The notes: generated from the sequence alone by a model not told the origin. Shown: positions 1-25,577, numbered from the stretch's first letter. The stretch is 64,000 bases of DNA from Minisyncoccia bacterium (GCA_038249055.1 JBBRWS010000001.1:78244-142243); one strand, 5' to 3'. Translations and numbers: made by a program.

Positions 1-76
1 TTATTGGAATTCGATTATAGAAAATATAAGGGGATTTAAGATATTAAATTATTAAATTATAAGTTATAATTTAATA

Positions 77-589: not shown

Positions 590-600
590 ATATTTAAAAT

Positions 601-940
601 GTGTGACCATACAGAGACTATGAGTACATTTATCGGCTACCACGTAGTCACCCAGTAGGTCAATTAACTAATTGAGGTATTTCGCTCTAGTTAGCACTAG
701 AGAACGAAAGATCTTTCTATTCTCCTCACGGTTCGATTGACTAATTGTCTGAAGCACGTGACGAAGGTCACGTGCTTAGGGTCACAAATAAATAATCGAC
801 TTAAGTCGGATTTTATCTGTGAGGGTTCTCGAGATAGAACAAGTTGATACATTGCCCAGTAAAGCTTGTTTTAATAATTTTACTTAAAATTTTTTAGCCT
901 TCTTGTGAGATTATAAAAAGTGGCAGTACTAAGACTATTA
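601..940 (+). repeat. Family A repeat, copy 1 (contains tRNA-Glu 3'-half-like fragments and GC-rich hairpins)
   Basis: about 85% identical over ~230 bp to 17258-17472. Contains GGTTCGATT, TCTG...TAGGGTCAC and the palindrome AAGCACGTGAC-GAAG-GTCACGTGCTT. Its 5' end GTGTGACCATACAGAGA resembles the tRNA-Glu 3' end seen at 39725. Confidence 0.7.
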
Positions 941-1045
941 AAATTATTACAGAATGCTGTATATTTACATTTAGATATGCATTGACATTTCATATTTTTA
1001 TGATATTATTTCAAAAAATGCTATTTAAAAACCAATACATAAAGT

Positions 1046-1861
1046 ATGAATATAAAAGGAACAGGAAACAAGATTTATGCTACTGTAAGACAGCTTGCAT
1101 CAAATCCAAACTTTAATCTCTATGAATGTTTGGAAGGAGAACAGACCTATTTTCTTAAAATTGCCAAAAGCAAAGCTGAAAATGGGACTCTTGAAAAAGA
1201 GGAGTATATCCTAAAAACATTAAAAGAGGTTTCGGACAATGTTGAGATTGAATACGCAAAGAAAAGAACAAGACCGGATTCAGTATTGAACAACCACTTT
1301 TTTTTCCCAGAGATTGTTGATTCATTTATTTGTAAGGAACAGCAAAATCGCAGGGTCCTAATTTTGGGACTCACGAGTGTTTCAAAACAAACTAGTGATT
1401 TAGCACCCATCTCTTTTATTACAAAAAGGGATATGGTTAAAATCGACCCAAAAACAAGTGTTTGGATTCTTGGAAAACTTTTGAAAATGCTTGTTTTTAC
1501 TCACGGTCAAAATGTTTTGGTTCGTGATTTAAGTGCAGACAATATTCTTGTAAATAAAGCACAGCATTATGTTTCAGTTTTAAACTGGGGAGATGCTTTG
1601 ATTTTGAACAGGGAGTTGGAGCAAAAAGAATGCTTAATTGAAATTGTTGGTGTCACCAAGGAAGTTGTAAAACTTTTAGGTGGAAATCCTACGACAGGAG
1701 AAATTCCCGAAGATGAACAAATGGAAGATTCTCGATATCAAGATTTATTAAAAAAATTGATTCGAGGAGAATATCATGATGCTTATCTTGCACACTCTGA
1801 TTTTTATGGAATTGTTAGGTCTATATGGCCGAGTAAATTCCATCCTTATACAACAAAGTAA
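1046..1861 (+). CDS. protein-kinase-like fold protein (atypical, possibly pseudokinase)
   Basis: FLKIAK (beta3 Lys-like) and VRDLSADNILV resembling the HRDLKPENIL catalytic loop but with H->V and K->A. Lies in a locally GC-rich block. Confidence 0.5.
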   Translation: MNIKGTGNKIYATVRQLASNPNFNLYECLEGEQTYFLKIAKSKAENGTLEKEEYILKTLKEVSDNVEIEYAKKRTRPDSVLNNHFFFPEIVDSFICKEQQNRRVLILGLTSVSKQTSDLAPISFITKRDMVKIDPKTSVWILGKLLKMLVFTHGQNVLVRDLSADNILVNKAQHYVSVLNWGDALILNRELEQKECLIEIVGVTKEVVKLLGGNPTTGEIPEDEQMEDSRYQDLLKKLIRGEYHDAYLAHSDFYGIVRSIWPSKFHPYTTK

Positions 1862-1895
1862 ATTTTTTATTTTTTCACAATTAAAATCATTTAAA

Positions 1896-2996
1896 ATGAA
1901 CGACAAAGATGTCTTATCAGACAAGGTTTACAAAGACTTTAAAAGTAATGTAAACACTGATCACGTAACCTCAAAGGCGCAGGAACGTCACGAAAAAGGC
2001 TTAGGCCTTGATCCTCTGGTGGATCCAGCAAGTAATGGCGTCATTAGACGCTCTCTCAACCGCATGGAACCCGAAGGTTTATTATTCAGGCTGGTTATGG
2101 GGATTGCAATGCTTGTCGAAGAGCGACTCGATACAACGGGTTCATTCAAGAGAAATGTTGACATAGCTTTCAGAGTTCTTCCAAGAACATATGAACTTTT
2201 AAGAAAGGTTCTTGGGCGCTATGACCTTCAGATGATCAATGCAATTTTTGCTGATGCTTTGGACGATTACATTCTCTGCCGGTCACATGCCGAAATGGGG
2301 ATAAAGATTGCCGAGCAAATGACGCTTATGGTGCCAGAGGGTGGAGGAAAGGGAAATCACGGAGAAGATCCTCAATATGGATTGTTCGGTGGAGCATATC
2401 TGACAAGTGCAGATATTAATCGCTATGGTTTAAAGTCTTACGACTTTACTGTAACAGATGAGCCTTCTCATGAGCCAGTTCTTAAATCGCAGCTTGAAAG
2501 GGTTTTTGGAAAAGAAGTTTTCGATAAGGTTAAGGAAAACGGTTTTGAAATTGACCCAAACAATCTACCTTCTGTAAAACAGGTGATAGACAAGTTGCTC
2601 GAAAGAGCTCATGCGTTCGTGTTTCTTGTAGACATGGACGGTGAAGCCAATGATTACTGGACTACTGTAATTGCTCAAAACAGGATTATTTACCTGGAAG
2701 ACACCAATTATTTACCCGAAGTAAAAGCTGCAATTATCGGCTTAACTGAAGGAGTTTTGACCCTATCTGATCTGGAAGACTTTTTGGTCAACGAGGCAAA
2801 CGTTTCAAAAGACGTTGCCAAGATGATTAAACGCGCCGTAGCCGGAATTCCAATCGGTGCACAAGCTCTACTTGAAAACTTTGACAAAATCCCACTGAAG
2901 GGTGACTTGTTCAAAGAAAAGAGAGATATATGGCCGACAGATGAAATTCCCGAAGAAGATGGTTCTGAAGAACCTCCTAAAACAGAATGGTTGTAA
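1896..2996 (+). CDS. hypothetical protein (GC-rich block)
   Basis: long ORF. Start moved to the ATG at 1896 to avoid overlap with the upstream gene. No motif recognised. Confidence 0.5.
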   Translation: MNDKDVLSDKVYKDFKSNVNTDHVTSKAQERHEKGLGLDPLVDPASNGVIRRSLNRMEPEGLLFRLVMGIAMLVEERLDTTGSFKRNVDIAFRVLPRTYELLRKVLGRYDLQMINAIFADALDDYILCRSHAEMGIKIAEQMTLMVPEGGGKGNHGEDPQYGLFGGAYLTSADINRYGLKSYDFTVTDEPSHEPVLKSQLERVFGKEVFDKVKENGFEIDPNNLPSVKQVIDKLLERAHAFVFLVDMDGEANDYWTTVIAQNRIIYLEDTNYLPEVKAAIIGLTEGVLTLSDLEDFLVNEANVSKDVAKMIKRAVAGIPIGAQALLENFDKIPLKGDLFKEKRDIWPTDEIPEEDGSEEPPKTEWL

Positions 2997-3003
2997 AACA
3001 TTG

Positions 3004-3038
3004 ATGAGGTGACCTATAAATTATTTAGGTCACCTCAT
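3004..3038. terminator. perfect 12-bp stem-loop between genes (attenuator or terminator-like)
   Basis: ATGAGGTGACCT-loop-AGGTCACCTCAT. Confidence 0.4.
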
Positions 3039-3054
3039 TTAAAAAACTTTACGA

Positions 3055-4458
3055 ATGAAAGAAAAGAAAATCTTTGTGATAGTTGATGTTGGCTTTGGTG
3101 ATAATGTAAAAGGTGGAACAGCACATAAAGTAGGTGTTGTTAAGAAAGCCCATACATTTATCAAAGTCGGTGGGTGCCAATGTAGCCACGGTGTTTTTAC
3201 TTCAGATGGTAAAGAAAATAATTTTCATCATTTTGGATGTGGAACATTTGAAGGCTCAAAAACCTACATTAGCGAGAGAATGGTTATTGAACCATATAGA
3301 TTATTGATTGAAGCAAGTAACTTGCAAGATGAATGGGGAATTCACAACATTTTTGATTATCTAACTATTGATAGAAATTGTCTTTGTGTGACTCCTTTTC
3401 ATACCTTGAGTTCAAGGTTCAGGGAGTTGCTTCGAAAAGATAATCCTAAAGGTATCGTTGGTGTAGGTGTTGGAGAAACACTTCGCGATCAGAAAGATTT
3501 TCCCGATGAAGCAATTTATGCTAAAGATTTAAACAGTCCAAGTCTTAGAAAAAAACTCGAATTAGTAAGAGAAAGAAAGTTTGAAGAATTCAAAAACATA
3601 CTTTCTTATGATTGCAATTTGTTAGATTATTTTCATAAGGCAGATATTGAAAAAGCTTCCGAGTTTATTGATTTATTTCACGACAGTGATTTTATAAATC
3701 GCATCGTTGATGTTTTCAATGAAGTTTACTCAAAAATTACTATTACAGATGAAATTTATTTCAGGAATCTTCTTGAAAAAGATGGAGTCATGGTGATGGA
3801 GAGTTCTCATGGAGTTTTGAATGATAGATTGTACGGTTTCCAACCTCACGTTACTGAATTGCGAATTCTACCTCAGCTCAACATTGAAATGCTAAATAAA
3901 TATGGCTTTTCAGGTGATTTGGTAAAATTAGGAGCTACTCGTGCTTACCAGGTACGACATGGAGCTGGCTCTATTGTTACTTACGATCAAGAGATGACTA
4001 AAAATTTAATTCCAGATGGAAATAAGTTAGACAATCGCTGGCAAGGTAAAGTTCGTGCTGGAGCTCTTGATTTTGTGTCATTACAATACGCTATCGATAT
4101 TTGCGGAGGGCCTGAATTTTTTGATGGGATTTCTGTTAGTTGGCTTGATCAAATAGAACTTTTGAAAAAATGGGACATTTGTGATAGTTACAATGGTAAC
4201 AATGATTTAGATTTTTTCTTGCCAGATGGAAAGATAAAAGTTTATAAGCCAGTAGATGACCAAGCTTTGGTCGAGCATCAAAAGTTGCTAACCATGCAAT
4301 TAGACAGATGCACTCCAAATCTAAAATCCTATGACATCAAAGGGATGTCGAGAGAATTGTTCCTACGTTTATGTTCATCTGTGTTTGAAGAAAAACTGAA
4401 AGTCCCAGTAAAAATGGCGAGTTTTGGTAAGTCCGAAAACGACAGAATACTTATGTAA
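3055..4458 (+). CDS. adenylosuccinate synthetase (PurA)-like protein, highly divergent paralogue
   Basis: collinear with PurA: GDNVKGG vs GDEGKGK, GGCQCSH vs GGHNAGH, GIVGVGVGETLRD vs IGTTGRGIGPAYED, VMVMESSHGVLND vs FVMFEGAQGTLLD, YQVRHGAGS vs YSTRVGAGP. Asp13 and His41 equivalents are kept. The P-loop lysine, Gln224 and the Arg cluster are altered. Confidence 0.6.
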   Translation: MKEKKIFVIVDVGFGDNVKGGTAHKVGVVKKAHTFIKVGGCQCSHGVFTSDGKENNFHHFGCGTFEGSKTYISERMVIEPYRLLIEASNLQDEWGIHNIFDYLTIDRNCLCVTPFHTLSSRFRELLRKDNPKGIVGVGVGETLRDQKDFPDEAIYAKDLNSPSLRKKLELVRERKFEEFKNILSYDCNLLDYFHKADIEKASEFIDLFHDSDFINRIVDVFNEVYSKITITDEIYFRNLLEKDGVMVMESSHGVLNDRLYGFQPHVTELRILPQLNIEMLNKYGFSGDLVKLGATRAYQVRHGAGSIVTYDQEMTKNLIPDGNKLDNRWQGKVRAGALDFVSLQYAIDICGGPEFFDGISVSWLDQIELLKKWDICDSYNGNNDLDFFLPDGKIKVYKPVDDQALVEHQKLLTMQLDRCTPNLKSYDIKGMSRELFLRLCSSVFEEKLKVPVKMASFGKSENDRILM

Positions 4459-4470
4459 ATTGATTAAAAA

Positions 4471-4500
4471 GGTGGAGCTTAGGCTTCACCTTTTTTTTAT
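4471..4500 (+). terminator. rho-independent terminator
   Basis: GGTGGAGC...GCTTCACC hairpin followed by a T-run. Confidence 0.55.
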
Positions 4501-4660
4501 TTTTATCTAAAATCTACCCCTTGACAAAACGGCAGATGTTATATAATATATGCACTAAGATTGAAAGAATTAAGTTCTTCTAAAGTAAATAATTTAAAAA
4601 ACGAAATTACAATAAAAAATTTTGATTTAAACCATTTTTTCTAACTTAAAAAACAAAAAG

Positions 4661-5767
4661 ATGAATGAAGAATTGAAAGCCCTATTGATTGGGTTAGGTC
4701 TTAATGAAGACCAAATTCAGAACCTTGCCAACGAAGGTGTTGTGACCATTGAAGACTTAAAATTGTTTTCAGAGCAGGATATCAAAGAAAAAACTGGAGC
4801 CGGACTTGTTACTGTGAGAAAAATTGTAGCAACTTTGTTTCCAAAGATTGAAAATCCTGTTTCTACCACAGCAATGTCGTTTAGCGCAGATGTTTTGCCG
4901 GAAATACCATCAGAAGAATCATGGCTCAGCGCTTTACGTGCCGGCGGAGTCCTTAAGGTAGAACAATCAACTGTGATTTCTGCAATCAGAGCGGCTCTTG
5001 CCGATAAGGTTGGTCTCTATGATCTTCCTTCAAAAATTGTGAAGGCCATGGAAACTTTCGCTGATGCTAATGCAGAACCGGTTCCTGCAAAAGAATTTTT
5101 TGCAATCAGAAAGCAACTTGTTAGAAAAAGCTATGCTGACATCTTTGAAGCCATTGATGGTCTCGACGGGAGTTTTGTTACTGATGCCAGGAAAAATGCT
5201 TTCCTTAAAAAAGTTGATGAACTTTTGTGGCCTGCGATTGTGTCATTCTATGCTCAGCTTAAAGCTTGGGTTGATGCATGGCAACAAGGAGCTTCTAACC
5301 CGGGAACGATGATGAACATCATGGCTACTGTTATGGCTGGTGGTAAAGTGCCTGCAGGAATGATCTCTGCTCCTCCTGAAACTGGAACACTTCGTGATGA
5401 GGCCGACGCCTTGAACGATGGTATAAACAAAGTTTTTTCTGGAGTAGGTGCCCAGATTGCAGCAGCTTTGGCATATGAAGCATCAAGTATTAAAAAGATG
5501 CTTGAAAATACCCAGCTGCCATCAATGATTGGGGTTGCTAACCGCGAACAAATGTTGAGAACTCTTAAAGCAGATGTTCCCGCTACGTATCCGCGTTTGG
5601 AAACAAACCTCTCTAAATTCGTACTTGGAGTATTGAAAGTAAAAGACATCGCCGATGGTGATGAAGCACTTCAATACTTTACCTCACTTCACATGCTCGG
5701 GGCACAAATTCCCTGGGATAAGCTTGGCAAAGGTAATGCCTCTTTAAACATGGGAAGGCAGTTGTAA
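4661..5767 (+). CDS. hypothetical protein (GC-rich block)
   Basis: 368-aa ORF with coding-like composition, no motif recognised. Confidence 0.55.
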   Translation: MNEELKALLIGLGLNEDQIQNLANEGVVTIEDLKLFSEQDIKEKTGAGLVTVRKIVATLFPKIENPVSTTAMSFSADVLPEIPSEESWLSALRAGGVLKVEQSTVISAIRAALADKVGLYDLPSKIVKAMETFADANAEPVPAKEFFAIRKQLVRKSYADIFEAIDGLDGSFVTDARKNAFLKKVDELLWPAIVSFYAQLKAWVDAWQQGASNPGTMMNIMATVMAGGKVPAGMISAPPETGTLRDEADALNDGINKVFSGVGAQIAAALAYEASSIKKMLENTQLPSMIGVANREQMLRTLKADVPATYPRLETNLSKFVLGVLKVKDIADGDEALQYFTSLHMLGAQIPWDKLGKGNASLNMGRQL

Positions 5768-5791
5768 TCGTTCTTTTAAACAAAAAACAAA

Positions 5792-5826
5792 AAGACTCAC
5801 CATTTTTACGGTGGGTCTTTTTATTT
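5792..5826. terminator. bidirectional terminator between convergent genes
   Basis: AGACTCACC...GGTGGGTCT hairpin flanked by A-run and T-run. Confidence 0.55.
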
Positions 5827-7785
5827 TTCAAGTTGAGGTAAAAATACTTTTGTGATAAATAACTTTGTTGCTAGTCTTCGGTATCCTGAATCCCAGAACA
5901 TACTATTCCCATCAATATCTTTAGAGTTTTTAGTTTTAATTCCTCCTTGTTCCGCATTTAAACGCGCATATCCTTTGTGAAGTAATCTGTATTGGAGAGT
6001 ATCTCTCTCGAGTTCTTTCATCCATATTCTGCGAGCATCTATGTCTGCTATCTTTTTATCTTTAGAATATAAAAATCCTGGAAGTAATTTTTCATATAGT
6101 TCTTTTATTGCTTCTTTTTTACCACACCATGCACCTTCTAGTAGTACGCTTATTGTTGCACTGCTTGCTTGTTTGTCATCGCTATCTTCTAAATCTTGAA
6201 TCTGTAGTTCACCCCCTTCATTTTTTAGCCAAAATTCAAGAGCTTTACCGTTTATTTTTTTTTCTGTAAATGTTTCATTTAGAAGTTTTCTAATATTTGT
6301 TTTTTCATCGTTAGAAACATTTGGTTTAACAAAAATAGCGATATCAGTGTCTGAATTTTTTGTTCCATAACCTTTTATTTTTGAACCATACACTATTGAA
6401 ATAGGGTATATATACTTACTAAGTTCAGTATTATTTTCAATAGATTCGGTTATTTTTGAAATATAGTTTATTTCTTCAATTGTTTCTTGTTTATTATTTG
6501 AAAAAAATGGAGTATCAATTTTTTGTATTTGGATATTATTTTTATCTATATATTTATCGTCTATAATACCAACAGATGCAAATCTTGACCATGTGCCAAT
6601 AAGAGCATCTTCTACTTCTGGTGTACTTTCGTTTTGTAAACTTTGCAATATTGGTTCAAATTTCTCTAATGATTTCTGAGATTCTTCTATATTTGTAGTT
6701 GCCTTATTTTCAATATACTTACGTATACCATCTATTACGATTTGTTTAGATATAGATATTTCGTTTGCTTCCATCCATTTTTGGATATCGTTCAAAGATA
6801 GAGATTCGTTTTCTATGCCCTTAAATAAATTATCGGAATATTTATTTATTAGTTTTTTTAAATTTTCTTGTTTAATCCAAGCCGCTCTTTCTTTTGTAAA
6901 ATTAGAAAATTCTTCCTGTTTGCCATCTGATAGGTTTAAGTCTTTTTCAATTTCATCGTTTATTCCACTTAGCCAATTTTTATCATAATTTTTTTCATCT
7001 ACATTCTCATTATTTATTTTTCCTTCACCAGCTTTTATGATTGGATACATATTTCTAATTAATATTTCTTTTGAATTTAAAATCAATTCAAAATCATTTT
7101 CTGAAATCAAACCCATATCATTTAAGACGGGGAGGGTGTCAGCAATACTATTTTTTAAAACATTGTCGTCACTATCTTCCATTATTTTAATTACTTCAGA
7201 AAAAGGTAGTAGATTCTTCTTCACAATAATCGGTATAAGGTGAGCAGCCTTGTTTACTTTTTCGTGTGGTCCATTTCTTAGCTCTGGTTCAAGTAGGTCA
7301 CCATCTATAAAATTTGCACGAAAATCATTAACAGAAAGAAGTTCTTTCCATTTTTCCATATAAGTAGTAGAGAAATTGTTTATTGATTGTGAGAGTTCTT
7401 TATTTTCAGTTTCAATATCTTTTTGTGGTAAAAGTTCAAAAGGGAAGTATAATACCATTCTATTATTGTAAGGGTCACTTTCGAGTAGCTCTGAAAGCTT
7501 GTTGTACATATCTGTAGCTTTTTCTATAGGTAACAGTTTTTTCTCTAGTATCTCTTCTATCTCCATAGTATATGGAATAGAGGAAAGTGAATCAAAATGA
7601 TTTGATAAATTTTGTCTTAATTGAGCTTGTTCTATTAGTTCTTTGTTGTTATTGATTTCATTAGGCCAAAGAGAATCTTTTTGTCCTGGATATAGTAATG
7701 ATTCTCCTGCTGGAGCTACAATTACATTTTTGGATTCTATAGTTTCAATCTTTATTTGAGGTGGTTTTTGGTCAGGTTTAAACAT
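5821..7785 (-). CDS. nucleotidyltransferase-domain protein (Pol-beta superfamily) with ~450-aa N-terminal region of unknown function
   Basis: GS-x10-DxD motif (YGSKIKGYGTKNSDTDIAIF) in the C-terminal third. Confidence 0.5.
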   Translation of the reverse strand: MFKPDQKPPQIKIETIESKNVIVAPAGESLLYPGQKDSLWPNEINNNKELIEQAQLRQNLSNHFDSLSSIPYTMEIEEILEKKLLPIEKATDMYNKLSELLESDPYNNRMVLYFPFELLPQKDIETENKELSQSINNFSTTYMEKWKELLSVNDFRANFIDGDLLEPELRNGPHEKVNKAAHLIPIIVKKNLLPFSEVIKIMEDSDDNVLKNSIADTLPVLNDMGLISENDFELILNSKEILIRNMYPIIKAGEGKINNENVDEKNYDKNWLSGINDEIEKDLNLSDGKQEEFSNFTKERAAWIKQENLKKLINKYSDNLFKGIENESLSLNDIQKWMEANEISISKQIVIDGIRKYIENKATTNIEESQKSLEKFEPILQSLQNESTPEVEDALIGTWSRFASVGIIDDKYIDKNNIQIQKIDTPFFSNNKQETIEEINYISKITESIENNTELSKYIYPISIVYGSKIKGYGTKNSDTDIAIFVKPNVSNDEKTNIRKLLNETFTEKKINGKALEFWLKNEGGELQIQDLEDSDDKQASSATISVLLEGAWCGKKEAIKELYEKLLPGFLYSKDKKIADIDARRIWMKELERDTLQYRLLHKGYARLNAEQGGIKTKNSKDIDGNSMFWDSGYRRLATKLFITKVFLPQLEK

Positions 7786-7967
7786 AAATTTTATATTGTT
7801 TATTGTTAGATAATAACACTTTGATGTTGTTATTCAAAGCTGGGGTGTGGAGGTATTTTGAAACAATGGATGAGGTTAACAACTAATTTGCTGGAACTCG
7901 ATTATTAATAATATGTTGATTTCTATTCTAATGTGATGTTACTCAAAAATAATGATATAATTACAAA

Positions 7968-8132
7968 ATGCAGGATAAGAATATAATATCTAAAATTAAT
8001 GAAATATACACTAATTTTACAAATAAAATTGGTGATCTTCTTAATAAAAGAAAGGACCTACTTAAAACCTATCGTCAAAAATTAGAAGAAGCTAGAATTA
8101 AAGAAGTCAGGGATTCAATTCTAAAACAATAA
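7968..8132 (+). CDS. small ORF (54 aa) tightly coupled to the downstream gene, not in the ORF track
   Basis: ATG at 7968, stop TAA at 8130-8132, 1 nt before the 8134 start. Basic and helical composition. Confidence 0.25.
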   Translation: MQDKNIISKINEIYTNFTNKIGDLLNKRKDLLKTYRQKLEEARIKEVRDSILKQ

Positions 8133-8133
8133 T

Positions 8134-9537: not shown

Positions 9538-9540
9538 AAT

Positions 9541-9720
9541 TAGAAAAGTCTTTCGATTTTTTGACAAACATGACGTAGGTAATGTGCTTAGGGTCACGCA
9601 AAAAAAGAGACTCACTTTCGTGAGTCTCTTTTCTCAACGCGTGAGCCCAGTAGAAATTCGATTGGAATAAAATTTATAAATAAAAATGACCCTAAACTTT
9701 CGTTTGTAGGGTCATTCTTT
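9541..9720 (+). repeat. Family A repeat, partial copy, with two terminator-like hairpins
   Basis: TCTTTCGATTTTTTGACA...GACGTAGG...GTGCTTAGGGTCAC shared with copies at 601 and 17128. Hairpins AGAGACTCAC/GTGAGTCTCT and AATGACCCTA.../TAGGGTCATT. Confidence 0.55.
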
Positions 9721-10215
9721 TATTATTCCAAATCCATGAAAATCTAATATTTCTTGGGTTTGGTCATTACCATAATCAAGCATTTTTATTAAACCATTAA
9801 ATTCACAAAAATTCTCTGGTTTGAGAAAATCAATACTCTTTATTTCTCTTTTGATAATTTTCTTTAGAAATTTTACCCATCGAGGATTAGAAGAGTTAAA
9901 AACATTACCCCTTGGTTGAATTATTATATAACCAAATAAGAATGCTTTTATTACTGGCAATAATGTTTCTTCTTCTTGATGTTTCTTAAAATACAGATAC
10001 TCTCTTCTGTTTGAAGATAATATATGAAAGATATAAAAAGGAATAGATAATATTTTATTTTTACCATAACGATTAGCTTTCTCATTAAAAATACCTTCAT
10101 CTTTATATTTTAAAAAACATTTAATAAGCAGAACAAAATTTATCCACGGAATTTTGATAGCATAGTCTCCATGTATGAAGACCAGTCTGCTCAATCCTTG
10201 AGTAATAATCTTCAT
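9712..10215 (-). CDS. hypothetical protein
   Basis: 167-aa ORF. Confidence 0.4.
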   Translation of the reverse strand: MKIITQGLSRLVFIHGDYAIKIPWINFVLLIKCFLKYKDEGIFNEKANRYGKNKILSIPFYIFHILSSNRREYLYFKKHQEEETLLPVIKAFLFGYIIIQPRGNVFNSSNPRWVKFLKKIIKREIKSIDFLKPENFCEFNGLIKMLDYGNDQTQEILDFHGFGIIKE

Positions 10216-10386
10216 AACTTTTTAAATTTTAGCTAGAAATTATGCGAATTTATCCATAGATTACTTTTTGTTTAGATAATTGTCAAATAAGTTAAGTCCA
10301 ATCCATATTCGAGTAAGGACCGTTTTTGCAAATTTATTGCACTAATCTAATTCATTACTATGTAATGATATTTTTAGTATACAAAA

Positions 10387-10425
10387 AAGCCCAGAATCAT
10401 ATTATTGGATTCTGGGCTTTTGTAT
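10387..10425. terminator. bidirectional rho-independent terminator
   Basis: GCCCAGAATC...GATTCTGGGC flanked by A and T runs. Confidence 0.6.
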
Positions 10426-10446
10426 TTTTAAGGCGTAGAGTATTGT

Positions 10447-10923
10447 TTATTGATTAAAGAATAGAACGCATTCTTCACCTTTTGGAATACTTGGAAGTTT
10501 CAGGGTTTTTTTATACCTGCAATTTTTTCCTTCGTATGATTCCGCTTCACCTCTCAAGATGAATGTTCTGGGATTATTTGTTGGACTTTTTTCAACCAAC
10601 TCTTTTCGTACAAAACGGAGAGAGATTTCTTTCCCATTCTTTGGATTAAAATCAAATATAAACATATTGATACCGCCTTTTTCATTAGGGTTTAATTCTC
10701 TTAATTTTCCCACAGTATTGGCAGGGATAACAAGAGAATCAACTCTTACCTCTGTTCTTATAAAAAAAACTGACGAACTTTTAATCTTGTAATCGTCAAG
10801 ATATTCAGTCCCAGCTATTTTTTGTTGCTCGGCGCAACTACAAAGATATAGAACTACAATGCTTAAAAAGGCAATTGGCATTAACACTTTAATTATCCAA
10901 GACCAAATTTTATTTTTCACCAT
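10447..10923 (-). CDS. putative lipoprotein
   Basis: N-terminal signal with lipobox-like LYLCSC. Confidence 0.5.
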   Translation of the reverse strand: MVKNKIWSWIIKVLMPIAFLSIVVLYLCSCAEQQKIAGTEYLDDYKIKSSSVFFIRTEVRVDSLVIPANTVGKLRELNPNEKGGINMFIFDFNPKNGKEISLRFVRKELVEKSPTNNPRTFILRGEAESYEGKNCRYKKTLKLPSIPKGEECVLFFNQ

Positions 10924-11104
10924 GATATATAGCTTTAAATCATTTTATTTATATCCTCAAAATGAGAAACAAATAAAACTATGACATTTGGTGGTATTAA
11001 ATCATATTTATATTGTAGTGTCAATTTTAATTCAAATTTGATAAAGTCCATATTTGTGGTATAACGGGGGAAATAGATAAATCTTCACTTAAAAAACAAA
11101 CCTA

Positions 11105-11749
11105 ATGTATTTATACAAAAGTTTTATATTGCTCATTATCGGGATAATATTTTTTGCTAGTTGCGAAAAAGAAGCATCAGATGGTCCGACAGATTCATTG
11201 TATATTAAATCAGCCGGAATCGATGAGGCGAAAGTCCTATGTATCGATGGAAGAGAAAGGTATTATTTTCCGAATGATATTTTGTTTATAATTCCTGTAC
11301 TAAAAAGTACTCCAGAGATTTTAAATAATTCTATGCTTAAAATAGAAGATTTTAAAATTTTGTCCAATAATCAAGTAAATTTTACCGTATCGGAGATAGG
11401 TTCTGAAATGATCGTCGTACCCGCTTATAAGCTGCCGTTTTGTGATTCTGATTATGATTTTCAATCCGAAAGTGGTGTTAAAAAATTCAATGGTATTTTG
11501 AAATCTGGTGATTTTGTTTTTGCTGTAAAAGTTACAGATGAAAAAATTAATATCAAAATTTTAGATTTAAAAACGAACTATTTAACTACAACCATTGCGA
11601 GTTATAGCAATAATGCTTTAATATTTAAAGTTGGTGCTGAAATATGGCAATTATGGTTAAGTAAAATTTCCAACAGGGGTAATATTTTTCAGATGTTTGT
11701 AGAAGGGAAGGGTTATATTTGTTATTCTTTGTATTTAGCTAAAAATTAG
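11105..11749 (+). CDS. putative lipoprotein
   Basis: signal peptide ending FFASC. Confidence 0.5.
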   Translation: MYLYKSFILLIIGIIFFASCEKEASDGPTDSLYIKSAGIDEAKVLCIDGRERYYFPNDILFIIPVLKSTPEILNNSMLKIEDFKILSNNQVNFTVSEIGSEMIVVPAYKLPFCDSDYDFQSESGVKKFNGILKSGDFVFAVKVTDEKINIKILDLKTNYLTTTIASYSNNALIFKVGAEIWQLWLSKISNRGNIFQMFVEGKGYICYSLYLAKN

Positions 11750-11760
11750 TAGGTATAAAT

Positions 11761-11797
11761 AAAAAAGGTCAATACTTAATAGTATTGACCTTTTTAA
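11761..11797. terminator. bidirectional terminator
   Basis: GGTCAATACT...AGTATTGACC with flanking A/T runs. Confidence 0.6.
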
Positions 11798-11814
11798 TTT
11801 AGATTAATTCATCA

Positions 11815-12171
11815 TCATTTCTTTAATTTATTTATTAATTCAATAGTAAAAGGAAATTTACCCCAAATGGGTTGTTTGTATTTCTCCTTTATACCATCAA
11901 TATAATAATAACCAATCTCGGTTTTTTTAAGATTAATTACTGTAATTTTCTTTCTAACAACAACAGTGTTAATTGTAGCCAAAATAATAAAAATAAGGAC
12001 TAAAATTACAACTGTTACAAATATTAATTTCCAGTCTGGTTCTTTGTTTGTAATTACTACAAAGGCTAAACTAATGAAAATTAATATAACAGAAATTATT
12101 GAGATTACAAGAAACGCAGAGTTTACCGGTTCCTTTGATACAGATAAAAAATACCTTTTTATTGTTTTCAT
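11815..12171 (-). CDS. small membrane protein
   Basis: 118 aa, two hydrophobic helices. Confidence 0.4.
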   Translation of the reverse strand: MKTIKRYFLSVSKEPVNSAFLVISIISVILIFISLAFVVITNKEPDWKLIFVTVVILVLIFIILATINTVVVRKKITVINLKKTEIGYYYIDGIKEKYKQPIWGKFPFTIELINKLKK

Positions 12172-12245
12172 CGGTTAGTTTTTTTTAAGTGAATTGATTA
12201 TTTAAAGAGAGTATTTTTTATAAATTTAACATTAGCATATATAAC

Positions 12246-12290
12246 TGTCAATTTGACAGATTTTATAGAATATTTATAGATTTATATGTA
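12246..12290 (+). promoter_or_regulatory. promoter/operator-like motif, copy 1 (palindrome TGTCAATTTGACA plus a downstream TATAGAT-like box)
   Basis: a perfect TTGACA sits 17 bp upstream of a TATAGA-like hexamer. The motif recurs at 12408. Confidence 0.4.
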
Positions 12291-12407
12291 GAGAGAACGA
12301 TGGTGCTTACATATTCATTATATTAATTCAATAAATATAACTTTTAGCATAAAAAAACCAATAATTACGTTTTTTACCATAGTAAATAAAACATTTATTT
12401 GGATGCT

Positions 12408-12452
12408 TGTCAATTTGACAGAGTTATACATATTTGATAGATTTTAGTCAAA
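12408..12452 (+). promoter_or_regulatory. promoter/operator-like motif, copy 2 (TGTCAATTTGACA palindrome)
   Basis: second copy, about 160 bp upstream of the 12611 gene. Confidence 0.4.
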
Positions 12453-12610
12453 TCATGTTTCTTAAAAATGCTTACAAATTGTATTGCTTGAGAGCAAAAC
12501 ATGCGTTTTTACAAATTCGCCCAAAATATTAAAGACTCGGGGTAACCCACTCTATATATAAAAAACCAATTTTTTTCTAATTTTTATTTATTTACTTAAA
12601 TCATTCTATT

Positions 12611-13246
12611 ATGAAAAAGTTAATTTTTGTTTTGGCGATTATGTTCGCTACAGTTGCTTATGTGAATGCACAGACTCCTGTAAATTTTAATCTTTCGATG
12701 CAGGTTGCAAAGTACATTGAAACGACTACGGGCCCGCTTGCTTTTAATTTTGGAACAGCAACTCACAACGTGTACTATGGTGCTCCTGGGAACATGGATT
12801 TGTACTATCCGGCCACTGGATCATGGGATCTCGCTTATGCAAATTGTGGATTTTCTGTAACTCTTGCAGGTGACAATCCGGCTAGCCAAGGTGTTCCGCG
12901 TTTTGCTAAAGTAGAAGAAGGTACTCATGGAGCTGGGTGGGATGTTTTGAATACCGTTTACCAGATTGGTATTTGGACTAATGGTGAAGTTCAGAATGAT
13001 GCTTTTGGTCATGTTTGGGGATTTGGAGCAAGTTCATTTCCTAAGACAGCAAATTTTACTGAAACTCCTCACAATGGTCAGGTTAAAATGACAATGCTTG
13101 CACACGTGAACTCACACTGGCAGAATGATAAAGATGCCGGTATTCCAATCAGAGAAACAGTCATTAATCCTGCTTTCACTTACCAGCAGTCGGCCGATGA
13201 AGGAACCTACACAGCGAATATGGTTGTTACTTTGGTAGCTCTGTAA
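12611..13246 (+). CDS. secreted protein (locally GC-rich gene)
   Basis: signal peptide MKKLIFVLAIMFATVAYVNA; GC well above the neighbouring DNA. Confidence 0.55.
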   Translation: MKKLIFVLAIMFATVAYVNAQTPVNFNLSMQVAKYIETTTGPLAFNFGTATHNVYYGAPGNMDLYYPATGSWDLAYANCGFSVTLAGDNPASQGVPRFAKVEEGTHGAGWDVLNTVYQIGIWTNGEVQNDAFGHVWGFGASSFPKTANFTETPHNGQVKMTMLAHVNSHWQNDKDAGIPIRETVINPAFTYQQSADEGTYTANMVVTLVAL

Positions 13247-13428
13247 TTATTAAGCATTTTTGTTAAAGTATCCTGTTAAAGGATTCTTAAATTTTAGAAA
13301 AGGCATCTCTATGAGGTGCCTTTTTTGCATCATGTAAATTTTGACAAAACATCAATATTATGATATATTCACAGCAAATTATTAGGATATTTGAAAGTTA
13401 AATACTAACTAAATGAAAGGAAAAAAGA

Positions 13429-13926
13429 ATGAAATTACTATTTGTTTTTGTTTTGTTAATACCAATACTTTGTTTATCTCAGGAAGTTGTATTGAAAAAT
13501 ATAAATATCCCTGGAGATAAAAGTTTAGGTGTTATAAATGGGGCAATATTGAGTGAAAACTTAATTGGTCCTCGTAAAGTAATTTTTGAGAAAAATCCAA
13601 ATCAAATGGTTCTACAAAAAATAGAAGAGAGAAAGTCTTTTCGTTTTGGACTAGAATCCTCTGATATGGATAAACTCAGCACTCTATATTCAGGAAAAAT
13701 ATTTTCTCCTGGAATAACTGAACCTTTTATCTTCGAGAATAAAACACCCGAAGAATTGTCAGTACTTGAAGTAGTTGTTTTTCCTGTAATATTGGAACAA
13801 CCATATACTTTATATATTGACTTGAAAGTTCAAGTTTCTTCAAAAACTGTTTCGGTGAATCAAATAGATTCTGATGACGCAGGAACTTATAATGCAAAAA
13901 TAACAATATATCTAACAGAAATTTAA
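13429..13926 (+). CDS. secreted hypothetical protein
   Basis: signal peptide, 165 aa. Confidence 0.45.
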   Translation: MKLLFVFVLLIPILCLSQEVVLKNINIPGDKSLGVINGAILSENLIGPRKVIFEKNPNQMVLQKIEERKSFRFGLESSDMDKLSTLYSGKIFSPGITEPFIFENKTPEELSVLEVVVFPVILEQPYTLYIDLKVQVSSKTVSVNQIDSDDAGTYNAKITIYLTEI

Positions 13927-13937
13927 AAAAAGCTGGA

Positions 13938-15140
13938 ATGAAAAGAAAAATTTTATTTTGTTTAACGCTTATCTTATTTATAAGTTATGCGTATGCTGTA
14001 AAAGTGTCACCAGTTCGGTTTGATATGACTATTGCTCGTGGTGTAAGTCAAGAATTTGTTATAAATTTAACGGGTACTAAAGGGTCTTATAATCAGGATT
14101 TATTAATATATCCTTCAGACCTTTTTATGTCTCGTGTTGGAACTTTATCTTTTGACACTATTGTAGGAAATAAAAATTCTGCAATAAATTGGATAAAAAT
14201 GGAAAATAATAAAATTTCTTTACTTGAAGATCAGGCAAAAGAAATTAAATTTAAAGTTTCCATACCTTCCAATGCTACACCTGGAGAGTACTATGCTGTG
14301 ATTATGGTAGAACCTGATAAATTTACTAAAATTAAGGATGAGAAGAATCCTTATGCTTTTAAAATGAAAACAAGGGTCGCTGTAGTCGTGGTTTTAGATG
14401 TTCCCGGTAGAGCTTATGAAAAAAAAGGAGAAGTTACTGAAGTTAAAATTCTTGAAACAGACAGCATTGTAAAGATAGCTTCTACTTTTAAAAACACTGG
14501 TGATATACATCTAGATGTAGTTGCTGAAGCCATAATAAGGAGTGCAGATGGTAGAGTTAACTTTGGGAAGTTTGATTTAGGAGCTTTGAGTAGTTCAAAA
14601 AAAGAAGCTTTTATTTTTCCTGATGCTATGCGCGATTTTGAAGGAGCTCTCAGAAGGCAATTGCCGACTGGTGACTATATGGCAGAAGTGTCATATAACT
14701 ATGGTTATGACTTCAAAAAAGCCAAGCAAATTGAAAAATTTTCTGTAAAAAGGAAAATATCACTTAATGAAAACAGTAACGAATTCCTTAGTTTAAAAAA
14801 CGAGGAGTTGAGACTATTGATTCCAAAAGGTGGAAGGAGAACTCAAGTGGTCACAGTTACAAATACCGACTACAGAGTTTTGAATGTGGATATAGCATCT
14901 AGCGATTGGGTTCAAGCTACTCCAAGTATTTTGAATCTAAAACCTGGCGAAGTGCGTAATGTTATGCTTACAATTTCTGCAACTGATTACGATTTGTCTC
15001 AAGAAAAAGAGACGACTCTATCTTTTAAAACAGATAGAGGGAAAAGTGCTGAAATGAAAGTATTTATAACTGGATTGAAAGAAAATCTTGTGAAAAAAAC
15101 CGAAACAAAAAAAGAAGTTAGTCTAAACCTTAAAAAGTAG
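13938..15140 (+). CDS. secreted hypothetical protein, possibly secretin-associated
   Basis: signal peptide; immediately precedes and is co-oriented with the secretin gene. Confidence 0.5.
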   Translation: MKRKILFCLTLILFISYAYAVKVSPVRFDMTIARGVSQEFVINLTGTKGSYNQDLLIYPSDLFMSRVGTLSFDTIVGNKNSAINWIKMENNKISLLEDQAKEIKFKVSIPSNATPGEYYAVIMVEPDKFTKIKDEKNPYAFKMKTRVAVVVVLDVPGRAYEKKGEVTEVKILETDSIVKIASTFKNTGDIHLDVVAEAIIRSADGRVNFGKFDLGALSSSKKEAFIFPDAMRDFEGALRRQLPTGDYMAEVSYNYGYDFKKAKQIEKFSVKRKISLNENSNEFLSLKNEELRLLIPKGGRRTQVVTVTNTDYRVLNVDIASSDWVQATPSILNLKPGEVRNVMLTISATDYDLSQEKETTLSFKTDRGKSAEMKVFITGLKENLVKKTETKKEVSLNLKK

Positions 15141-15143
15141 GAA

Positions 15144-16454
15144 ATGAAAAAGTTAAGTTTAATTTTAGTAGTTTGTATCAGCATGCTTATAGTAAGCTGT
15201 GCTACAATTCGTGAACCTATCCCTGTTAACAAAAAAGTAACTTTGACTCAGGCAGAAATCCAAAGTTTGGAACAAACAGAAGACAATGCCACAGAGGTAA
15301 AGTATCTTTCGATAACAGAAGAACAAAAGGGTACCGCAACGCATCCTCTTGTAAGTAATGTATTTGTTGAGACCGACATTCGTGCCGTCTTGATGGATAT
15401 ATCTACTCAGTCAGGTGTTAATATAATTCCTGATAATACAGTTGAAGGCTCAGTATCACTTACTCTTAACAATGTATCTCTTGAAAAAGCATTCGATATG
15501 ATTTTGTATCCTGGTGGATACAAATATCGTTATGTACAAGATGGTAATTATTACATTGTGGGTAAATCACTTCCGGAGAATAGTAGTTTTGACGCATTAA
15601 CTGTTACAAAGGTGATTAAAACAAACAGAGGTGCTGAAAAGGTACTTTCTCAGTTATCTTCATTTTTTCAGTCGTTCGTTAAAGCTGATGGTCAGACTAT
15701 CACAATCACTGCAACTCCCGATATGATAAATCGTATTGAGAGAGATATCGCATTAATCGACAAGTCAAAAAGATTGATTGAAATATCGGCACAGTTTGTG
15801 ATGGTAGAGTGGAGTAAAGGTGTAAACCTTGGAGTACAATGGAGCGACATTAATTTGAGTGCCATTGGTATTGCAGACATTATAAAAGGTGGAGCGACCG
15901 CTATGTCTTCAAATCTTACTTCAAGTCTTAGTGCCTTTTTATCTTCAAATGGATACGACACTAAAATCAAAACAATCGCTGAGCCCAGGATTGTCGTAGA
16001 AGATGGTGAAAAAGCAGAACTGAACATTACCGAAGAGCATTTATTTTTAATACTCTCTGGTGGAGGTGCTGCTTATAACTATTTTACAACGAAGGAAGTA
16101 TCTGTAGGTATTAAACTGAAAGTACAACCCTTCGTTACTCGTGATGGTCAGGTTCGTCTAGCTATTAATCCCGAAGTTGCTGATATTATCGGCGAAAGGG
16201 AATTCAAGTCAAATGGTGGACCTAGTCAGAAGTTGCCTATAATTGCTCGTCGCTCTACTCAGACTACATTAAAAGTTCAGAATGGAGAGACAATAGCGAT
16301 AGGAGGTCTGATAACAAAAATGGATCAAAATAAGAAGAGTGGAATTCCATTCTTTCGCAAGATTCCATTAGTTGGTTTTGTTTTTGGAAGCCAAAATAAG
16401 GCAGCCAAAGAAACTGAATTGGTAATTTTTATCACTTCCAGGGTAATTGGTTAA
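15144..16454 (+). CDS. secretin (PilQ/GspD family) lipoprotein
   Basis: C-terminal secretin-like signature ETIAIGGLITKMDQNKKSGIPFFRKIPLVGFVFG...ELVIFITSRVI; N-terminal lipobox LIVSC. Confidence 0.6.
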   Translation: MKKLSLILVVCISMLIVSCATIREPIPVNKKVTLTQAEIQSLEQTEDNATEVKYLSITEEQKGTATHPLVSNVFVETDIRAVLMDISTQSGVNIIPDNTVEGSVSLTLNNVSLEKAFDMILYPGGYKYRYVQDGNYYIVGKSLPENSSFDALTVTKVIKTNRGAEKVLSQLSSFFQSFVKADGQTITITATPDMINRIERDIALIDKSKRLIEISAQFVMVEWSKGVNLGVQWSDINLSAIGIADIIKGGATAMSSNLTSSLSAFLSSNGYDTKIKTIAEPRIVVEDGEKAELNITEEHLFLILSGGGAAYNYFTTKEVSVGIKLKVQPFVTRDGQVRLAINPEVADIIGEREFKSNGGPSQKLPIIARRSTQTTLKVQNGETIAIGGLITKMDQNKKSGIPFFRKIPLVGFVFGSQNKAAKETELVIFITSRVIG

Positions 16455-16488
16455 ATTTAGTTAGTTATTTGAATAAAGAATGAATAAA

Positions 16489-16521
16489 AGAAGCAGTACA
16501 AGTGACTGCTTCTTTTTTAGT
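16489..16521 (+). terminator. rho-independent terminator
   Basis: GAAGCAGT...ACTGCTTC followed by TTTTTT. Confidence 0.6.
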
Positions 16522-16660
16522 TTTATTTTTAATACAAACAATATTATAAAAATAATATTCTCGATGGCGGATAATAAAATGGAATGGACAAAAATTATAA
16601 TATGTGTTAAATTAATAAAAATATTGCTCGCAGTGCTTTGAACTCTAAAAATAAAATATT

Positions 16661-17074
16661 ATGAAAAATGTTTTTATTGGGTGTCACTCGGCACCTTCAT
16701 TTGTTAGTGAAGGTAAAACCTTTTTAATAAATCCTAGTTTTATTATTAACAACGAGTTAGAGTCAATATATTTTGATTGGGAAATAAAATGCATTAATGA
16801 ATTACCGGAAATTTCTTTGAGAGTCATAAAAATTACATCTGGCAGAGGTGCGCATATTACAGATATTTCAGAATATTTTATTTTTCCAGAAGAAAAAAAA
16901 TTTGCTGTAATTAAGGCTGTAAAACCTAGAATGAGTGCCATATTAAACACAAAATGTATAATTAAATTTGTAGAAAATATGATTATACCAATTGGAAAAT
17001 TTAGTATTGTTGCTGAAATTAGGTTCTGGGACCAAAGTAAAACTATTTCTCAAATTTTTCATTTAAGAAAATAA
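16661..17074 (+). CDS. hypothetical protein
   Basis: 137-aa ORF. Confidence 0.4.
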   Translation: MKNVFIGCHSAPSFVSEGKTFLINPSFIINNELESIYFDWEIKCINELPEISLRVIKITSGRGAHITDISEYFIFPEEKKFAVIKAVKPRMSAILNTKCIIKFVENMIIPIGKFSIVAEIRFWDQSKTISQIFHLRK

Positions 17075-17078
17075 TTAA

Positions 17079-17113
17079 AAAACGATATGGCTTTTGCCCT
17101 CTATCGTTTTTTA
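17079..17113 (+). terminator. rho-independent terminator
   Basis: AACGATA...TATCGTT followed by a T-run. Confidence 0.55.
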
Positions 17114-17127
17114 TAGTTTTTGTAATA

Positions 17128-17472
17128 TTACAGAGAGAATGAAAATCTTTTCGATTTACTAATCGTCTGACGCACGTGACGTAGGGAACAGAGACCGCGA
17201 GTACGCTTATCGAACCTTACAGGTTCAGTACACCTTTTCGTTTTGATTAACATCAAAAAACGAAAAGCTTTTCGATTCTCTGACGCAAGCAAAGCAGTTT
17301 GCTTGCTTAGGGTCACAACAAAAAAACCGACATAAGTCGGAATTTTTTGTGAGGGTTCTCGAGATAGAACCAGTTGGTTCATTGCCCAGTAAAGCTTGTT
17401 TTACTAATTTTACTTTAAAAGTTTTAACCTTCTCGTGAGACTATAAAAAGTGACAAAAGTGACAGTACTTAG
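17128..17472 (+). repeat. Family A repeat, copy 2 (two tandem tRNA-fragment-like units plus conserved 3' part)
   Basis: 17258-17472 is about 85% identical to 703-938. Contains TTCGATTCTCTG, a 25-nt perfect hairpin, then TAGGGTCAC, which reads as the tRNA-Glu T-loop/acceptor 3' strand split by an inserted hairpin. Also contains the terminator-like CCGACATAAGTCGG followed by TTTTTT. Confidence 0.7.
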
Positions 17473-25499: not shown

Positions 25500-25577
25500 A
25501 GGAAGCATACGACCACACTACGTATCTTTAGTTTTGCATAGGCTTAGCAAAAGACTAAATCTCTGACATCATTAGGT

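Follow-up and report, generated by a model that had tools for sequence, protein, structure and literature searches.

A 64,000-nucleotide stretch of Minisyncoccia bacterium DNA (GCA_038249055.1 JBBRWS010000001.1:78244-142243, here called the window), which is from a Nomurabacteria-like genome, contains three copies of an element that we call E, all on the + strand. We show that E is a conserved, structured, non-coding element that is tied to the ends of tRNA and transfer-messenger RNA (tmRNA) genes in one orientation, and the family is apparently phylum-wide and undescribed. In the window the neighbouring gene is tRNA-Glu, and E may be a miniature recombination or mobility module that acts at such genes. 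The host group, the Patescibacteria or candidate phyla radiation (CPR), makes up a large share of bacterial diversity with genomes of ~1 Mb, and to our knowledge few mobile elements have been recognised in it.

An alignment of 22 copies gave the anatomy of E, which is 140-190 nucleotides long, non-coding and rich in hairpins. Typically E and a tRNA or tmRNA gene stand tail-to-tail with nothing but a bidirectional terminator between them. The 5' arm reproduces the last 15-21 nucleotides of the neighbouring gene as their reverse complement, and the stretch copied by the arms comprises the T-loop, the 3' strand of the T-stem, the 3' strand of the acceptor stem and the discriminator; one such 5' arm, GTGACCCTA-CCGGGA(-ATCG), is the exact reverse complement of the 3' end of its tRNA. 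The 3' arm repeats this tRNA stretch in direct orientation, split at the junction of T-stem and acceptor stem by a conserved hairpin, P6, so that it reads YTTTCGATT-CCCGG, then P6 (commonly GCAAGCAAAGCAGTTTGCTTGC), then TAGGGTCAC. The two arms pair as helices P1, P2 and P2b and close a core of covarying hairpins, which from 5' to 3' consists of a small, optional P3, P4 with the loop YUUACAR, the junction CAGUAY and a long, variable P5. The P4 loop, this junction and the P6 loop (GCAG) are conserved single-stranded motifs. There are two core types, of which class II (CTCGAC-hairpin-GTCTGGGCACC...) has the same arms and the same P6. An initial annotation of the window had described GC-rich hairpins inserted into tRNA-Glu fragments; because the flanking arms pair as P1, P2 and P2b, the inserted hairpin is P6, and these hairpins are conserved helices with compensatory substitutions, not scars.

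RNAalifold predicted 37 base pairs, 25 of them with compensatory changes. In a curated structure of 47 pairs, 89.6% of cells are paired compared to 70.8% after shuffling and ~46% after sliding, and double changes occur at 28 of the 47 pairs. When 96 further copies were considered, double changes were seen at 46 of the 47 pairs, and the arms were paired in 79% (P1) and 93% (P2) of cases across tRNA types. Among the cells that are not Watson-Crick pairs, G.U and A.C number 106 and 85 overall and 53 and 61 in the arms; in P5 they number 37 and 9. Furthermore, copy 3 of the window and its counterpart in L026, a Candidatus Nomurabacteria metagenome-assembled genome, differ by compensatory pairs in P3 and P5.

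To define the distribution of E we scanned one genome per species with the pattern TTCGATT-N20-40-TGCTTAGGGTCAC. This returned 37 loci, 36 of which are in Patescibacteria (Paceibacteria, Saccharibacteria, Nomurabacteria, Kaiserbacteria and others). At 29 of these 36 loci E lies 30-60 nucleotides from an intact, convergent tRNA-Glu gene with a bidirectional terminator between the two, and the species' own variant of the tRNA-Glu T-stem is present in the 3' arm at 20 of the 29, against an expectation of 26%. A covariance model, R1, built without copies 1 and 2 of the window and with copy 3 included, also matched elements beside tRNA-Val and tRNA-Ser whose arms are the 3' ends of those tRNAs. A metagenome scan with the P6 hairpin alone yielded at least 120 contigs; among the matches listed, P6 lies 11-60 nucleotides from convergent tRNA genes of about 18 specificities with flanks that match each neighbour, and it is also found beside tmRNA genes and intron-containing tRNA genes. 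The elements that lie tail-to-tail with tmRNA (ssrA), in L051, L097, L109, L123, L138, L141, L152 and L160, have arms that match the tmRNA 3' end (TCCATCTCCAC). The tRNA next to the element is interrupted in L130 (1690-2370) by an intron open reading frame (ORF), by eye of the LAGLIDADG endonuclease type, and in L074 (10842-11139) by a group I intron; ARAGORN missed both interrupted tRNAs.

Both arms follow the neighbouring gene closely. Of 51 element/tRNA pairs, 23 have an exact 5' arm (15/15) and 17 an exact 3' arm; the median is one mismatch for either, and neither arm is the nearer to the tRNA (22 vs 18). A direct repeat of the tRNA end, scored as a 13-mer with at most one mismatch, was present in 46 of 101 cases. 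The distribution is sporadic: the same tRNA gene in syntenic loci occurs with or without E, and only a minority of the other tRNA genes on the same contigs carry one. One tandem doublet is 98.4% identical with a 183-nucleotide period that corresponds to terminator plus E, and heterogeneous doublets, made of different subtypes, were found in L030 and at window copy 3. Within single contigs only the tandem doublets were near-identical, and the copies in L014 and L093 are diverged. Genes near E are housekeeping genes, including those for MurF, FtsI, TrxB, FtsZ, ValRS and TsaD, and all-against-all clustering of 1,278 ORFs from ~155 loci in search of a partner gene gave recurrent families of the housekeeping kind only.

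Rfam returned nothing on E in the whole window at the gathering threshold, in copy 1 at E-values up to 10, or in 26 CPR and metagenome loci; the tRNA was its only match in the window, and E is called as a tRNA neither by ARAGORN nor by Rfam RF00005. Full-text literature searches, which did not span all journals, gave no description of such an element. Upstream of 46 elements a -10 box showed no positional enrichment, many copies begin 3-10 nucleotides after the T-run of an upstream terminator, and a promoter would have no space there. The orientation of the upstream gene is random, the same as that of E in 47 of 90 cases.

Copies and insertions at the tRNA-Glu locus

The three copies (Table 1) are where the initial annotation had placed its family A repeats, on the + strand, as confirmed by sequence and alignment. 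The tRNA-Glu gene, the sole tRNA in the window, provides the template for the element arms and anchors the array. In copy 1, the 5' arm, GTGACCATA-CAGAGA (603-617), pairs with the 3' arm, both P3 and P4 hairpins are present and the P5 region is expanded; the T-loop copy TTCGATT lies at 732-738, P6 at 753-774 and the acceptor copy TAGGGTCAC at 777-785. The fold has z = -4.5, with long-range pairing of 602-608 to 779-786. The start of this copy, GTGTGACCATACAGAGA, had been reported to match the tRNA end at 15 of 17 positions; we count 14 of 17 (14 of 15 from GTGACC), and the string is copy 1's own 5' arm, the partner strand of the acceptor copy. Copy 2, described earlier as a partial copy at 9541-9720, consists of the 3' half of E only (9541-9597), followed by a terminator. 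It retains the end of P5, the T-loop copy, a P6 that is degenerate and has one mismatch, and TAGGGTCAC; the end of ORF 8134-9537 stands in place of the 5' half.

Copy 3, placed at 17128-17472, had been said to carry two tandem units upstream of its conserved 3' part (17258-17472). Instead, we find one truncated 3'-arm fragment of the copy 1 type fused to one full unit, which comprises P2, P3, P4 (loop CUUACAG), CAGUAC, P5, TTCGATTCTCTG (17271-17282), P6 as a perfect hairpin (17285-17306) and TAGGGTCAC (17308-17316), without a proper P1 5' strand. The sequence of copy 3 bears out the proposed derivation of the repeats from the 3' end of tRNA-Glu, with T-loop, T-stem 3' strand and acceptor 3' strand on the opposite strand. 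TTCGATTCTCTG, which each copy was thought to contain, is exact in copy 3 only; at this place a small hairpin is added in copy 1, and the string in copy 2 is TTCGATTTTTTG. Similarly, the reported identity of ~85% over ~230 bp applies to shorter stretches, namely 83.5% over 182 nucleotides (744-925 vs 17275-17455) and 88.5% over 113 nucleotides, and falls to 72% over the full ranges. A core string, CTTAGGGTCAC, occurs exactly three times in the window (at 775, 9587 and 17306; 0.5 expected by chance), and the 22-mer GTGAGGGTTCTCGAGATAGAAC occurs twice, after copies 1 and 3 only (0 expected).

Relatives of this genome reveal how the locus has changed. The RsmI-like gene to the right of the tRNA (41294-41989) encodes a protein 91% identical to that of L026 and 86% identical to that of L030, and the genes downstream of it are syntenic. 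In L026 the order is E1, 690 nucleotides with one ORF, E2, terminator and tRNA-Glu, and in L030 tRNA-Glu is directly adjoined by two elements, one of class II and one like copy 1. Copy 3 is 80% identical to the L026 element that abuts tRNA-Glu, and copy 1 is 74% identical to the L030 element that adjoins it. By blastn, L026 E2 aligns to window positions 17183-17352 (80%) and the L026 tRNA flank to 39727-39906; therefore 22.4 kb was inserted between the copy 3 terminator and the tRNA 3' end. The genes at 1-22 kb of the window have no homologues in the L026 and L030 loci. These comparisons show that insertions occurred at the junction of tRNA 3' end and terminator and left E copies at the segment borders. 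They also show a tRNA-Glu/E locus stretched by about 39 kb of accessory DNA; the initial annotation was right in that, by comparison with close relatives, what separates the copies from the tRNA is accessory DNA that has been inserted.

Cargo of at least 1.3 kb between the E terminator and tRNA-Glu is present in 7 of the 36 genomes, and in every case its point of entry lies behind a GTGA or GTGACCCTA that is retained from the tRNA end. L007 and L009 have a second, diverged E next to the tRNA. Pfam identified no integrase beside any window copy or the tRNA, and the small cargos of L005, L007 and L009 contain none. The only recombinase in the window (25578-26900) lies in the middle of the 22.4-kb segment, 8 kb and 13 kb from its ends.

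Readings of element E

We hypothesize that E is a miniature, non-autonomous recombination or mobility module, a reading that we favour tentatively and to which we give something close to, or slightly short of, an even chance. E would be folded as a single strand, and its stem would reproduce the duplex of the tRNA-gene target. It would be acted on by an enzyme in trans, or would recombine homologously through the conserved P6-acceptor-terminator patch, and in this way E units with attached cargo would be inserted, duplicated and lost at tRNA-gene 3' ends. In tRNA orientation the parts follow one another as tRNA end, terminator, inverted copy, core, direct copy and second terminator, and integration of a folded hairpin that mimics its target would explain this arrangement because it would leave exactly such an order. 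The second terminator follows the distal copy as the first follows the real tRNA. The sporadic, polymorphic distribution and the tandem units of terminator plus E favour this reading, as do the entry of cargo at the same junction in independent genomes, the lack of promoter room and of a -10 signal, the random orientation of the upstream gene, and the near-equality of G.U and A.C overall and in the arms. tRNA and tmRNA genes are furthermore a classic target class of integrating elements (PMC4383910).

Several observations weigh against such a module. The neighbours of E are housekeeping genes, and no recombinase, transposase or reverse transcriptase recurs near it. The P6 22-mer had no match in 2.9 million viral contigs, where the tRNA-Glu pattern gave two chance matches inside a coding region; E was not found by blastn of phage and plasmid records, and no free or packaged form of it was seen. 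Copies within one contig are diverged, unlike the products of a recent burst. The compensatory pairs that separate copy 3 from its L026 counterpart and the G.U excess in P5 fit an RNA selected on the element strand. Finally, the newest segment, that of 22.4 kb, lacks its own E beside the tRNA; the array as a whole is therefore not accounted for by a single, simple model of insertion.

A bolder form of the mobility reading, which we think rather unlikely, is that E is a programmable, target-copying element in which the P4-P5 core and P6 form a scaffold and the arms are rewritten to match both strands of the end of the neighbouring tRNA or tmRNA gene. Through base-pairing or mimicry by the folded DNA or RNA, a Patescibacteria enzyme would then recognise tRNA-gene ends, and the outcome would be an integrase-free, guide-like system to insert and exchange defence and accessory cassettes.

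The main rival to the mobility module, somewhat unlikely in our estimation, is that E encodes a structured non-coding RNA whose function in the host is linked to tRNA. Its 5' arm would be complementary to the tRNA and its 3' arm would mimic it; such an RNA could buffer or terminate antisense transcription into the tRNA gene, or act on pre-tRNA 3' ends, and islands would exploit the same tRNA end and duplicate E passively. Covariation is strong in every helix and the loops and junction YUUACAR, CAGUAY and GCAG are conserved, as they would be in an RNA, yet two unrelated core types share the same arm logic. The excess of G.U over A.C in P5 on the element strand and the compensatory differences between close relatives point to RNA as well, whereas G.U and A.C are about equal overall and A.C is the more frequent in the arms. 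A proper intrinsic terminator stands 3' of E on its own strand, but there is no conserved promoter, many copies start within a few nucleotides of an upstream T-run and co-orientation of the upstream gene is random. The chromosomal housekeeping context and the absence of E from the viral, phage and plasmid collections searched suit a host gene. Its presence at few other tRNAs, its differing presence between syntenic loci and its tandem doublets speak against one, and an RNA that acts in trans has no obvious need to sit next to its tRNA.

Another possibility, which we judge improbable, is that E is passive: a hairpin-rich terminator would become a quasi-palindrome that template-switching corrects to the tRNA 3' end, with the inverted copy arising first and the direct copy after it, and with no specific function. 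Near-perfect palindromes with 25-45 bp in each arm are indeed made up by the tRNA end, spacer, terminator and 3' arm; the two arms of E match the tRNA equally closely, and G.U and A.C are about equal in the arms. This process would not account for the conserved core and identical 22-nucleotide P6 at 18 tRNA types on unrelated contigs, nor would it explain why P3 and P6 are inserted at fixed points, why the internal helices have evolved in a compensatory way and why E is restricted to one phylum.

The initial annotation had proposed that the copies may be decayed attachment sites, that is, attL/attR scars or displaced tRNA-Glu fragments left by serial, integrase-mediated integrations, with no structure or function of their own. 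The direct repeat of the tRNA 3' end formed in gene orientation by the 5' arm (the 13-mer above) and the accessory DNA between the copies and the tRNA are in line with this, and tycheposons are a documented case of serial integration in which the older elements are pushed outward (bioRxiv 10.1101/2020.12.28.424599). The annotation itself had named repeats at unrelated loci of related genomes without island content as evidence to the contrary, and this is what we observe: E stands beside tRNA-Glu without an island in 29 of the 36 genomes, L030 among them, and also adjoins many other tRNA and tmRNA genes in housekeeping surroundings. Because island-free copies exist, the scar explanation is largely refuted, and we consider it very improbable; the helices covary, the tRNA-like part that the annotation noted is in the opposite orientation, no integrase stands at the ends, and the sequences after the terminators are not significantly tRNA-like beyond ~10 nucleotides. 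Its alternative suggestion of a tRNA-derived repetitive element was right in spirit and close to the truth. That the tRNA resemblance is a chance match in an ordinary local repeat has practically no weight left: T-loop-like strings are common (TTCGATTCTCTG with up to two mismatches has 8 matches vs 5.9 expected), but the exact 12-mer and 9-mer in the right order, together with arms that follow the identity of each neighbouring tRNA at dozens of independent loci, refute it.

E marks a hotspot at which genes for Thoeris systems, nucleotidyltransferases and metal resistance, and putative diversity-generating retroelements, are inserted. Were E a recombination module, the gain of accessory genes at tRNA genes without local integrases could be explained, and E would point to a new principle of target recognition, through mimicry of the tRNA-gene end or pairing with it. 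If it is an RNA, it would constitute a large, phylum-specific RNA family linked to tRNA biology.

Accessory cargo, junction modules and other features

The features of the locus are collected in Table 1. The first segment opens with an operon (1046-5767, +) of a protein-kinase-like gene, two genes whose proteins have no Pfam match and a divergent adenylosuccinate-synthetase-like gene (3055-4458). Its PADLOC matches are weak (PD-T4-6/Stk2-like), and it may be an uncharacterised defence system. The secretin gene of the second segment (+ strand) matches PF00263 and the PHROG 'protein IV of M13'; the lineage is usually regarded as lacking an outer membrane. We considered and rejected an inovirus between copies 2 and 3, as PHROGs matched the secretin alone, with no Zot and no Rep. 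Genes of the third segment encode Thoeris ThsA and ThsB, a DNA methylase, a terminase-like protein, the large serine recombinase and heavy-metal P-type ATPases. Thoeris (20092-21500, -), with a Macro domain in ThsA (20092-20997) and a TIR domain in ThsB (20994-21500), was the only clear system that PADLOC found in the cargo. The DNA methylase, terminase-like large subunit and large serine recombinase are grouped at 22375-26900 (+) inside the 22.4-kb insertion, and from its gene content this group looks like a prophage or satellite remnant.

Table 1 Elements, modules and accessory segments at the tRNA-Glu locus of the window.
Feature	Position	Strand	Basis
Type 1 module before ORF 77-589	1-45	+	blastn, L026 5407-5508 vs window 1-87: 75%
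E copy 1, complete	597-785	+	R1 model, 61.2 bits, E 6.5e-15; copy 1 not in model
Bidirectional terminator hairpin after copy 1	796-809		Terminator scan
Type 2 junction module (GTGAGGGTTCTCGAGATAGAAC...)	819-925	+	88.5% identical to 17343-17455
Accessory segment A: kinase-like, adenylosuccinate-synthetase-like and Pol-beta nucleotidyltransferase-like genes	1046-9537		Pfam, PADLOC
E copy 2, 3' half only	9541-9597	+	R1 model, 23.2 bits; convincing alignment in the 3' half alone
Bidirectional terminator hairpin after copy 2	9601-9632		Sequence
Degenerate type 1-like junction (GTGAGCCCAGTAG...TTGGAAT)	9641-9685	+	blastn, L026 5304-5427 vs window 9543-9667: 74%
Mini-hairpin, stem TGACCCTA/TAGGGTCA of arm sequences alone	9686-9715	+	
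Accessory segment B, including pIV-like secretin (15144-16454)	9712-17074		Pfam, PHROGs
Truncated unit, copy-1-type 3'-arm fragment (TTCGATTTACTAATCGTCTGACGCACGTGAC/GTAGGGAA)	17147-17188	+	Aligned to copy 1
E copy 3, full class I unit	17178-17316	+	R1 model, 131.9 bits, but copy 3 is a model member
Bidirectional terminator hairpin after copy 3	17327-17340		Terminator scan
Type 2 module, second copy	17349-17455	+	Forms the left boundary of the 22.4-kb insertion
Accessory segment C (22.4 kb), not present in L026	17483-39724		Pfam, PADLOC
Intact tRNA-Glu(CTC), CCA encoded	39725-39799	-	ARAGORN and Rfam, 57.6 bits

Among the cargos of other genomes, that of L011 (~1250-4900 in element orientation) resembles a diversity-generating retroelement, judged by eye from translations: a reverse transcriptase with the motif IGNLTSQ is accompanied by an Avd-like ORF of the four-helix-bundle kind and by two candidate target proteins. 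The only public contig with the exact proteins of the window is Logan contig SRR19962012_103356 (L001/L002), which ends at ~17222, inside copy 3; E repeats therefore break short-read assemblies, whichever reading of E is correct.

Two kinds of junction module follow the element terminators. Type 1 (~60 nucleotides, GTGACCCTACGGGTAATTTATTGGAACTCTATTGTAGAGAATATAAGGGGA; L026 5398-5460) precedes unrelated ORFs and lies directly 3' of element terminators in several genomes. It is present twice in the window, where the first module starts 17 nucleotides to the left of the first letter (L001 2153-2215), and in L005, L007, L026 and L033. The first module of the window begins with GTGGTCCTACAG, which agrees at 12 of 14 positions with the reverse complement of the tRNA-Glu 3' end. 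Type 1 could be a portable promoter or leader, or else an island end. The type 2 module stands in for the tRNA gene after copy 1 and recurs after copy 3, and related sequences are present in L009 and L153. We compared both types with tRNA-Glu as possible decayed halves of the gene, and local alignments were not significant, except for GTGACCCTAC in L026; similarity of these post-terminator modules to tRNA is not significant beyond about 10-12 nucleotides. The proteins adjoining the type 2 modules that were compared are unrelated, as are the ORFs after type 1 modules. The mini-hairpin that follows the second type 1 site has a stem made exactly of element arms (ATGACCCTAAAC / TTTGTAGGGTCAT) and overlaps the stop codon of ORF 9712-10215. 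It may be a collapsed element.

Elsewhere in the window, a second intergenic repeat family of ~130 nucleotides has four copies between co-oriented core genes (42005-42149, 44833-44974, 46171-46315 and 52994-53130). Its arms, ATGARTCCCGTTAGAAGCCGCGGTC ... GAYCGCGACCTGCTTCTAAACGGGATGA, form an inverted repeat around an AT-rich centre, and it has no Rfam match. Two palindromes of 30+30 nucleotides without a spacer, one perfect (52708-52767) and one 90% complementary (50751-50810), are probably bidirectional terminators.

Comparison with known systems

Displaced tRNA fragments, the att repeats of islands in tRNA and tmRNA genes, are catalogued in Islander (PMC4383910). Like these repeats and like tycheposon arrays, E has the 3' end of tRNA and tmRNA genes as its target and a direct repeat of the tRNA end downstream, and as in tycheposon arrays, accessory and defence cargo accumulates and older segments are pushed outward. 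Unlike att repeats, E is present without an island, has an inverted target copy and a covarying core, and has no integrase at its end. The direct repeat in copy 1 (603-617) matches at 14 of 15 positions, yet it is part of E and is also present without an island. In place of an empty site, we find that E abuts tRNA-Glu in L030, L026 and 27 other genomes.

A second parallel is the folded single-strand attP of the phage CTXphi, which is said to mimic dif (attributed to Val et al. 2005), and of other integrating elements that depend on Xer. Both have two inverted target-like sites ~90-150 nucleotides apart and a stem that imitates a double-stranded target, and the integrated order of CTXphi (target, cargo, inverted site, spacer, target copy) and its tandem arrays are likewise similar. 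The arms of E form such a target-mimicking stem, paired as given above for P1 and P2 and with the median of one mismatch in 15 to the tRNA. In contrast to CTXphi, the target of E is a tRNA-gene end and not dif, with ~18 targets and arms matched to each. Whereas such a site is carried by a single-stranded-DNA phage or plasmid, E had no match in the viral contigs, phages and plasmids searched, and it has no Xer context.

Integron attC sites resemble E in being imperfect hairpins of 60-190 nucleotides in which structure counts for more than sequence, with a variable centre and asymmetric bulges, and in their constant orientation in arrays, where they separate cargo. E differs in that it lacks the GTTRRRY core, is not matched by the Rfam attC model and has no intI in its vicinity; its arms copy a tRNA end that is particular to the locus, and its cargo is multi-gene with promoters of its own. 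No tyrosine recombinase was found by the Pfam scans of the window or among the recurrent neighbours.

REP sequences, REPINs and MITEs (miniature inverted-repeat transposable elements) are, like E, short, non-coding, hairpin-forming and intergenic, often stand by terminators and sometimes form doublets. Their arms are the same genome-wide, whereas those of E vary by locus and equal the neighbour's end, and E is bound to one gene class in one orientation. The terminal inverted repeats that a MITE family would share are replaced in E by arms that differ with the neighbouring tRNA, and in place of the identical arms of REP and REPIN sequences with a RAYT we find locus-specific arms and no Y1 transposase among the neighbours. 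With tRNA-like RNA domains, such as the tmRNA domain, viral 3' structures and minihelices, E shares a closing helix whose 3' strand is that of a real acceptor and T-stem, with minihelix-like stacking; the 5' strand of E, in contrast, is fully complementary, T-loop and discriminator included, and there is no D arm and no matching anticodon arm. With structured RNA genes in general, E shares a conserved structure with covariation. E departs from tRNA-gene att repeats, CTXphi attP, integron attC sites, REPINs and MITEs in their defining features and belongs to no Rfam family, and it is nearest to CTXphi attP and integron attC sites in architecture and to tRNA-gene island arrays in the behaviour of the locus.

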